A stretch of DNA of 64,000 nt from a virus. Its lineage: Duplodnaviria > Caudoviricetes. This document shows, one piece after another, positions 34,296 through 34,676 of the stretch. The notes under the pieces are model-generated. The model was not told where the DNA came from. It made no database searches and was given only the letters and a program-made list of their open reading frames with translations. Both the position numbers and the translations under genes were made by a program. Each line of letters opens with the position of its first letter. The stretch's first letter is position 1. The stretch is taken from the IMG/VR virus record IMGVR_UViG_3300028364_000013; one strand, given 5' to 3'.

Positions 34296-34346
34296 TGGTG
34301 CCGCAGGGAGGAATGACCCTCCACTTTATAGCCTGATGGCTGCAGC
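34296..34346 (-). ncRNA. Minihelix-like RNA (acceptor stem plus T-like arm, ends ACCA)
   Basis: GCTGCAG..GGCTATAAAGT-GGAGG-GTCATT-CCTCC-CTGCGGC-ACCA. Confidence 0.55.
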
Positions 34347-34352
34347 GTGTTG

Positions 34353-34404
34353 TGGGAGAACCAGGATTCGAACCTGAGATTGATACCTTACATATCTTTC
34401 TCCC
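34353..34404 (-). ncRNA. 52-nt mini tRNA-like RNA
   Basis: GGGAGAA/TTCTCCC-A, perfect TTCGAAT T loop, single internal hairpin. Confidence 0.5.
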
Positions 34405-34409
34405 ATTTG

Positions 34410-34547
34410 TGCCCGTGAGTGGATTCGAACCAAAGAACTCTTTTCCCACTTTGTTGCAACGTTTCGGAATCGAGTGCAAGAATATACCAACTGTTACTCC
34501 TCACAATTAAACGTTATCATTGCGTCTTGTAATCTTGCATCACGGGC
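34410..34547 (-). ncRNA. 138-nt RNA closed by a tRNA-like acceptor stem and T loop
   Basis: GCCCGTGA/TCACGGGC-A; TGG-TTCGAAT-CCA. Confidence 0.5.
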
Positions 34548-34552
34548 GTTTG

Positions 34553-34628
34553 TGGCGAATGAAGGGTTCGAACCTCCGACCTCTGCCATCCGAAGATGAT
34601 AGCGCTCTACCAACTGAGCTAATTCGCC
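34553..34628 (-). ncRNA. tRNA body with anticodon loop replaced by a C(UUCG)G tetraloop hairpin
   Basis: GGCGAAT/ATTCGCC-A; CTATCATC-TTCG-GATGGCAG. Confidence 0.7.
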
Positions 34629-34676
34629 TGGTGCAGTGGGGAAGTTTGACCTCCCGCTTTATAACCGAGTCACTGC
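34629..34676 (-). ncRNA. Minihelix-like RNA (paralog of 34296-34346), ends ACCA
   Basis: GCAGTG..GGTTATAAAGC-GGGAG-GTCAAA-CTTCC-CCACTGC-ACCA. Confidence 0.55.

Follow-up and report, generated by a model that had tools for sequence, protein, structure and literature searches.

Minihelix genes joined to anticodon-less tRNAs in the tRNA array of a lake-water phage

Introduction

For 35 years minihelices have served in the laboratory as constructs with which it was shown that only the acceptor end of tRNA is read by synthetases, by RNase P, by EF-Tu, by the CCA-adding enzyme and, recently, by the anti-phage toxSAS toxins. A non-decoding tRNA-like handle is found in MALAT1/mascRNA and in the TMER of gammaherpesvirus 68, where the neighbour RNA receives its end through RNase P or RNase Z. 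Plant mitochondrial t-elements and the T4 species 1 and 2 (rnaC/rnaD) are small tRNA-like RNAs located in or near tRNA clusters and are thought to be handled by the tRNA-processing enzymes. It is proven that RNase P (PMC11143913) and the toxSAS enzyme FaRel2 (PMC11559606) accept minihelices as substrates, and hairpins formed by an acceptor and a T stem are efficient model substrates of RNase P (PMC11143913). In T4, dimeric pre-tRNAs carry units less than 5 nt apart that are cut by RNase P, and the cut at the 5′ end of the downstream unit sets the 3′ end of the upstream one (PMC11143913).

Here we describe two CCA-ended minihelices, mini1 and mini2, each of which abuts a tRNA-shaped unit without an anticodon (TL-A and TL-B, respectively). 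Like the synthetic acceptor-TΨC minihelices, they present a 12-position coaxial stack (7+5), an unpaired discriminator followed by CCA, and neither D arm nor anticodon arm. Unlike them, they are natural, genomically encoded and conserved, a conserved linker of 14-17 nt is looped out at the 7/49 junction, the loop, of 6-8 nt, differs from a TΨC loop, and mini1 has an invariant A7.C66. With the T4 dimers (e.g., Pro-Ser) the module shares two tRNA-shaped units on one transcript and strand, less than 5 nt apart (PMC11143913); however, both halves of those dimers decode, whereas neither half does in the phage module, and its upstream half is half-size. MALAT1 and TMER are eukaryotic or herpesviral and have an unrelated partner RNA, while in the phage module the partner is a CCA-ended mimic of the acceptor end. 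The t-elements and T4 species 1 and 2 are unrelated in sequence, and none of them is a minihelix with an encoded CCA joined to a tRNA that lacks its anticodon. The tRNA-like domain of tmRNA, including the CDS-less “TLD-only” forms, also joins an acceptor stem, a T arm and ACCA without an anticodon; the minihelices are much shorter, lack G3:U70 (mini1 has A3-U70 and mini2 the reverse, U3.G70) and have no T-loop, and ARAGORN called no tmRNA in the window, so this reading was rejected. The tRNA-like module of YrlA (RF02553) is a non-decoding tRNA mimic too, and gave a weak local match across the junction between minihelix and tRNA-like unit.

Phage RNA genes of this kind were neither described nor named in the full-text literature searched, in Rfam 15 or by ARAGORN. 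The module may be placed among the tRNA-like RNAs, its upstream unit being in structure a natural counterpart of the synthetic minihelix.

Results and Discussion

Organization of the Array

The DNA comes from a lake-water phage, and the window, that is, the whole stretch that was analysed, covers 64,000 nt of a 117-kb virus record (34% GC, about 53% complete). The genes of this record are predominantly on the minus strand, some 30 of them are tRNA genes, and a GOLLD RNA is encoded in the same window at 1995-2421. The array under study (34758-34148, minus strand) is densely packed. It starts with an amber-suppressor tRNA (anticodon CUA, 34687..34758, minus strand), which was found directly upstream of mini1 in 7/7 mini1 loci, separated from it by a spacer that varied from 8 to 22 nt across loci and has 10 nt in this genome. 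Next comes mini1, a 48-nt CCA-ended acceptor/T-arm-like minihelix (34629..34676, minus strand) defined by sequence, fold, orthologs and covariance model, and abutting it TL-A (34553..34628, minus strand), a tRNA-shaped RNA that scored 53.2 bits with the Rfam tRNA model, its anticodon region remaining unaligned. It is followed by a degenerate tRNA-like unit (34410-34547, minus strand), in which GCCCGTG/CACGGGC forms an acceptor stem of 7 bp, the T-loop is TTCGAAT, the T stem is weakened and the interior spans about 85 nt; this unit received no call from ARAGORN or Rfam and had no counterpart in the relatives fetched. A 51-nt three-arm mini tRNA-like RNA, mini3 (34354..34404, minus strand), precedes mini2 (34296..34346, minus strand), the 51-nt paralog of mini1, recognized by its parse, its fold and a covariance model score of 58.6 bits. 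Mini2 abuts TL-B (34148..34295, minus strand), tRNA-shaped as well (Rfam tRNA 41.5 bits, 83-nt insertion), and after TL-B, in array order, there is a methyltransferase gene with an in-frame TAG.

About 1 kb upstream of the array lies an amber-gated gene for a Pth2-type peptidyl-tRNA hydrolase, and between both there is an HNH homing-endonuclease gene on the plus strand (34815-35516; phrog_559, E = 1e-14). The site of this gene is occupied in relatives by an intact tRNA, whose 3′ end (...TCCCAGCCCCAAGGA) was left here as a remnant at 34762-34790 (minus strand), immediately upstream of the suppressor tRNA; thus, the homing-endonuclease gene appears to have split a tRNA gene. No integrase was detected among the neighbouring genes scanned. 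Beside the minihelices there was neither a reverse transcriptase nor a replication gene, so a primer role has no support from the neighbourhood. A CCA-adding enzyme (PF01743) and RtcB (PF01139) were not found in the 117-kb record, a result of little weight in a record only about 53% complete.

Several other tRNA-like features of this genome deserve mention. The 3′ trailers of its tRNAs are mostly discriminator-CAAAA or discriminator-CAA rather than CCA, and this conserved trailer may be a 3′-processing signal. At 26025-26103 (minus strand) there is an odd tRNA-like gene with the acceptor GCACCAG/CTGGTGT, the T-loop TTGGAAT, an encoded ACCA and an irregular interior, which ARAGORN did not call. 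The “tRNA-Ile(GAU)” genes that flank the array (35574-35649, minus strand, in this genome; 5441-5515 and 5793-5869 in contig L005; 5360-5435 in L006) have odd anticodon loops, for example, CTGATTT with U37, and CAGATGT or CCGATGT with G37 and without U33. With their conserved GATGT motif, they may perhaps not be ordinary decoders.

Anatomy of the Minihelices

Mini1 was parsed as GCAGTGA, a 14-nt linker, GGGAG-GTCAAA-CTTCC, CCACTGC and ACCA, and mini2 as GCTGCAG, a 17-nt linker, GGAGG-GTCATT-CCTCC, CTGCGGC and ACCA. The acceptor stem has 6 bp plus the A7.C66 mismatch in mini1 and 7 bp, including U3.G70, in mini2. In both, the linker has a conserved TATAAAG core followed by C or T, and the 5-bp hairpin is stacked on the acceptor in the fashion of a T arm, its 3′ strand continuing into the 3′ strand of the acceptor, which ends in an unpaired A73 and an encoded CCA. 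The 20-mer GGYTATAAAGYGGRRGGTCA is common to mini1 and mini2 and was found only here; the 13-mer core had exact matches in the window only at these two sites. The minimum-free-energy folds recovered the same shape, with z scores of -2.8 (mini1) and -2.9 (mini2), which derive from shuffle controls and are not to be read as probabilities.

In the structural register both minihelices have G1-C72, C2-G71 and G4-C69, and their top four pairs are those of the phage's own tRNA-Gly (GCAG...) and tRNA-Thr (GCTG...). All 8 sequences aligned, orthologs included, show the 7+5 stack followed by single-stranded NCCA that defines a minihelix, mini1 with one A.C at 7:66. The hairpin loops (GTCAAA, GTCATT, CGAAAT and TTAAATGT) are variable, have 6-8 nt and do not form the 7-nt T-loop, which makes it uncertain whether T-loop-reading enzymes would recognize them.

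The search against Rfam 15 (4227 families, E up to 10) gave no match to the minihelices except the sub-threshold YrlA one across the junction. RF00005 did not match them even at E up to 10, and ARAGORN made no call. They were rejected as canonical tRNAs, since the parse holds only an acceptor stem, a linker and a single hairpin, and as armless decoding tRNAs, since a 7-nt loop with U33 is found nowhere in them. An attP-type partial copy of a tRNA was also discarded: the minihelix has its own 5′ acceptor strand, which covaries with the 3′ strand (in contig L008), and the scanned neighbours include no integrase. As for the linker, its best duplexes with neighbouring RNAs fell on tRNA D-arms, at sites that were inconsistent across loci; an apparent compensatory change in L008 was explained by the D stem of the tRNA-like unit itself.

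An earlier note, made from the letters of this DNA, had described a duplicated module here, and most of its anatomy was borne out. There are two RNAs, at 34676-34629 and 34346-34296 on the minus strand, both of which pair with the same geometry; the parse agrees with the linker, the 5-bp arm, the 6-nt loop and the encoded ACCA that it gave as shared; each copy runs directly into G1 of a tRNA body that begins with GGCG; and the anticodon downstream is abolished as it stated, by a UUCG-capped stem in TL-A and an 83-nt insert in TL-B. Its third mini RNA between the two is real (34404-34354), though it belongs to a different family and ends in ACA. The encoded CCA turned out to be uncommon rather than unique: 3/28 other tRNA or tRNA-like genes of the genome encode it and 25/28 do not.

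Mini3 has a 7-bp acceptor stem, a hairpin of 4-5 bp that covaries (GATA/TATC to GGTG/CACC) and a canonical T arm with a TTCGAAT loop, and its 3′ end is A-CA, not CCA. It is kept in most relatives, including L010, L016, L020 and L031, which lack mini1.

The Anticodon-Less Partners

In TL-A the acceptor stem, the D arm, the variable loop and the T arm are normal and an 8-bp stem with a UUCG tetraloop stands in for the anticodon arm, while in TL-B the 83-nt insert takes the place of the anticodon loop. Neither has the conserved 7-nt anticodon loop with U33 and the stable anticodon expected of RF00005. ARAGORN reported TL-A as “Lys CTT”; this call was dismissed, the stem register on which it depends not being kept in the orthologs. 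In the alignment of seven 76-nt tRNA-like units, 96.6% of the cells were paired and 13 pairs had changed on both sides. In the capped stem 7/8 pairs covary, and so does the tertiary pair of the elbow (G19:C56 to A19:U56). The cap at the TL-A position is UUCG in this genome, GAAA in five relatives and a 30-nt insert in L015. The ortholog of TL-B in L015 keeps the 83-nt insert with no minihelix in front, and the one at the TL-B position in L012 has a GAAA-capped stem in place of the insert. Constraint thus falls on the body and the elbow, whereas the anticodon end varies freely.

This pattern argues against a four-base anticodon. ARAGORN indeed assigned a 4-base anticodon, “gaaa”, in L006 and L008, and a tRNA with an 8-nt anticodon loop could in principle decode a four-base codon, with the minihelix as an accessory. 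Nevertheless, that “loop” consists of a tetraloop, GAAA or UUCG, with two more covarying pairs (C-G, U.G, U-A) closing it, the would-be anticodon differs among orthologs of the same body (GAAA versus UUCG), and orthologs at the same site hold inserts of 30 or 83 nt, so we regard such decoding as highly improbable.

The tRNA-like unit also occurs without a minihelix, as in the second one of L012 and the TL-B ortholog of L015, and thus a handle would not be all that it is. The 5′ acceptor strand of TL-B reads GGCGTAG here and GGCACAG in its L015 ortholog, and from this comparison it seems that mini2 was acquired along with the GGCG at the junction, the first four bases of TL-B. Elsewhere in the window, at 3899-3997 (minus strand), we noted another GGCG-starting tRNA-like RNA (GGCGAGG...CTTCGCC, Rfam tRNA 46.6 bits), whose anticodon region holds about 25 inserted nt and whose T-loop has 8 nt; its body is of the same type as those of TL-A and TL-B and no minihelix stands in front of it.

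Relatives and Conservation

Syntenic contigs were found via homologs of the neighbouring Pth2 (62-91% identity), and further contigs from JGI and ENA metagenomes were obtained with an unbiased mini3 pattern; searching for related loci with a single protein (methyltransferase or PTH2) returned no loci. Orthologs of mini1 were present in 6 syntenic contigs (L015, L005, L006, L008, L012 and L013), between the PTH2 and methyltransferase genes, with covariance model scores of 64-78 bits. In all six the order is the same, mini1 directly behind the suppressor tRNA and followed by the GGCG-starting tRNA-like unit. The gap after CCA was 0 nt in 7/8 cases and 1 nt (an extra A) in L008, and a minihelix without its tRNA-like unit was never seen (8/8 are followed by one). 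Seven syntenic relatives (L010, L016, L017, L019, L020, L030 and L031) lack the module, which therefore behaves as an optional, dispensable cassette. Mini2 was found in this genome only.

The covariance model built from the eight minihelices detected nothing beyond them when run on the complete 117-kb record and on 16 related loci. Exact-pattern scans of IMG/VR (three minihelix patterns and one for mini3) gave chance matches in coding DNA or none, the minihelix pattern had 5 chance matches in GTDB genome contigs, of which 0/5 were followed by a tRNA, and blastn against GenBank phages matched ordinary tRNA segments and nothing else.

Two observations were made in the relatives. In L010 (about 3950-4095) and L019 (about 3545-3690) the slot of mini1 and its tRNA-like unit holds a single tRNA-like RNA of about 190 nt, with the acceptor GGCTCGT/ACGAGTC, a normal T arm and an interior of about 115 nt conserved between both contigs. 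In L005 (5420-5440), and at the homologous sites of L006, L008, L012 and L013, a hairpin spans the PTH2 stop just upstream of the first tRNA; its arms covary (TTGCA/TGCAA versus GTGGCA/TGTCAC), and termination or processing may take place there.

Mini1 is better conserved than its neighbours, with a mean pairwise identity of 87% against 78% in the suppressor tRNA next to it and 56% in the spacer. In the eight-sequence alignment of the minihelices 89% of the cells were paired and 4 pairs had changed on both sides; when the alignment was slid to other registers pairing dropped to 43-67%, with no competitor. Every cell of the hairpin is paired, its positions 3 and 4 swap G.U/A-U for A-U/G-C, and a contig from a marine-sediment run adds two more hairpin changes, both pairing in the 5-bp register. 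In the acceptor stem, G6-C67 becomes A-U in L008. All the aligned sequences belong to one phage clade, and the independent compensatory events are few, about 4-5 in the minihelix. The conservation and the compensatory change in six related phages are the strongest evidence beyond chance, and we conclude, as far as sequence comparison can tell, that the minihelices are genuine small-RNA genes under selection.

With regard to the earlier note, it had staked its proposal in part on finding the motif in relatives, and six have it. It had also stressed that two different acceptor stems both pair and that compensatory stems argue for selection. The pairing stands, mini1 with 6 bp and A7.C66, and the orthologs strengthen the case for selection; the number of independent changes in the acceptor had been over-counted, since the MAFFT alignment revealed a GCAG/CTGC core common to both stems with a 3-nt offset, so that they are partly homologous and not fully independent.

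These data bear on whether the minihelices could be decaying tRNA pseudogenes, internally deleted, left over by recombination or homing endonucleases in a fast-changing tRNA island and devoid of function. The array is certainly in flux: an HNH gene splits a tRNA, the inserts of the tRNA-like units are variable and the content of the module differs among relatives. The interior of the minihelix resembles segments of the tRNA D-loop, variable loop and T arm; this similarity is weak (z <=2.8) and not significant after multiple tests, and an origin from a tRNA by internal deletion was set aside for that reason. Against decay, the identity of mini1 is far above that of the spacers, all the stem substitutions keep pairing, the ACCA|G junction is conserved, and a diverged second copy has the same geometry. 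We give this explanation a small chance.

An unlikely possibility is that the minihelix acts only in cis, as a structured 5′ leader or punctuation, similar to a t-element, that tunes either processing by RNase P/RNase Z or how stable the tRNA-like unit and the polycistronic tRNA/mRNA transcript are. Its location is a tRNA array flanked by two protein genes, a physical link to its tRNA-like unit is never missing, and acceptor/T hairpins are substrates of RNase P (PMC11143913). On the other hand, relatives process the same array without a minihelix, the flanking tRNAs already supply cleavage sites, and such a role leaves unexplained the conserved 14-17 nt linker, the invariant A7.C66 and a conservation of mini1 higher than that of a working tRNA.

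Proposed Processing

The most economical reading, by analogy, is that the anticodon-less tRNA would serve as an RNase P handle that makes an exact CCA 3′ end, a role that the earlier note had not considered. The ACCA|G junction and the intact tRNA body behind it provide what RNase P requires, and it is for this reason that we favour the handle. The reading would account for the zero-length spacer between minihelix and tRNA-like unit, for an elbow that is retained while the anticodon end drifts, for an encoded CCA where 25/28 other genes of tRNA type do without it, and for the seeming arrival of mini2 with the GGCG of TL-B.

The array would be transcribed along with the neighbouring tRNAs. From the biology of RNase P and the T4 dimeric precursors, the host RNase P would be expected to cleave 5′ of G1 of the tRNA-like unit, which keeps what the enzyme reads (the acceptor stem, the T arm and the D/T elbow), the anticodon end being presumably dispensable. 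This single cut would give the minihelix its exact CCA-3′OH, so that neither RNase Z nor a CCA-adding enzyme would be needed. The 3′ RCCA end is known to pair with the RNase P RNA (PMC11143913), and the freed RCCA could then aid the trimming of the 5′ side of the minihelix by RNase P. The mature RNA of 48-51 nt, non-decoding, would use its acceptor end as a mimic, serving as decoy, ligand or competitive substrate for a protein that reads the first acceptor base pairs and NCCA. We put the whole scheme, a dimeric precursor of the T4 type in which a cut at G1 releases a non-decoding CCA-ended mimic of the acceptor end, at an even chance.

It is also conceivable, with rather low probability, that minihelix and tRNA-like unit form one uncut bipartite RNA, either a tRNA-like scaffold to which a phage or host protein binds, as with a Y RNA, or a cargo or partner of a GOLLD cage in which the GNRA- or UNCG-capped arm docks. 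In the DNA one part always accompanies the other, the weak YrlA-like match spans their junction (18.3 bits), and GOLLD, whose cages were proposed to hold phage tRNAs (bioRxiv 10.1101/2024.12.08.627333), is encoded in the same window. However, the YrlA score is far under the gathering score of 69 bits, with E = 1.4 and the Ro-binding stem absent, which led us to reject a Y RNA of this family; the linker shows no consistent complementarity to neighbouring RNAs; and a perfect ACCA next to G1 of an intact RNase P substrate favours cleavage.

Candidate Targets

The candidates for the partner of a released minihelix, all of them speculative, are a CCA-end toxin of toxSAS or MenT type, a synthetase and the adjacent Pth2. 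Such an RNA could not decode and presents just those features on which readers of the acceptor end rely. The earlier note had put forward decoys of the aminoacyl or CCA end, substrates of Pth or a synthetase, and primers as possible roles. The adjacent methyltransferase was discarded as a partner: it looks like a DNA methyltransferase domain, not a tRNA enzyme, and it is present in relatives that lack the minihelix.

For the anti-phage toxSAS FaRel2, a synthetic minihelix suffices as substrate (PMC11559606), and the enzyme selects tRNA-Gly and tRNA-Thr via the acceptor pairs 1, 2, 4 and 5 (PMC11559606). The minihelices match 3/4 of these determinant pairs; pair 5-68 is pyrimidine-purine in both, the opposite of the determinant. 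[quoted passage not shown] In its full form, the proposal would be that phage minihelices are antidotes to immune toxins of the acceptor end (for example, the toxSAS pyrophosphokinases CapRel and FaRel2, or MenT-type nucleotidyltransferases), G1-C72, C2-G71 and G4-C69 copying the targeted tRNA-Gly/Thr class and the tRNA-like unit being purely an RNase P handle. We consider it doubtful; if true, it would represent a natural use of the “operational code” of tRNA as a decoy. A synthetase, EF-Tu and the adjacent Pth2 are candidate targets on an equal footing.

Conclusions

The setting of the module is a phage genome in which anticodon-less tRNA look-alikes stand beside a GOLLD RNA, an amber suppressor tRNA and an amber-gated Pth2 gene. 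A natural, conserved minihelix gene with the making of its CCA end built in would show the minimal substrate of the laboratory to be in use in evolution as well. The 125-nt combination of minihelix and handle would also offer a concrete, clonable object for probing what phages do with non-decoding tRNA mimics.
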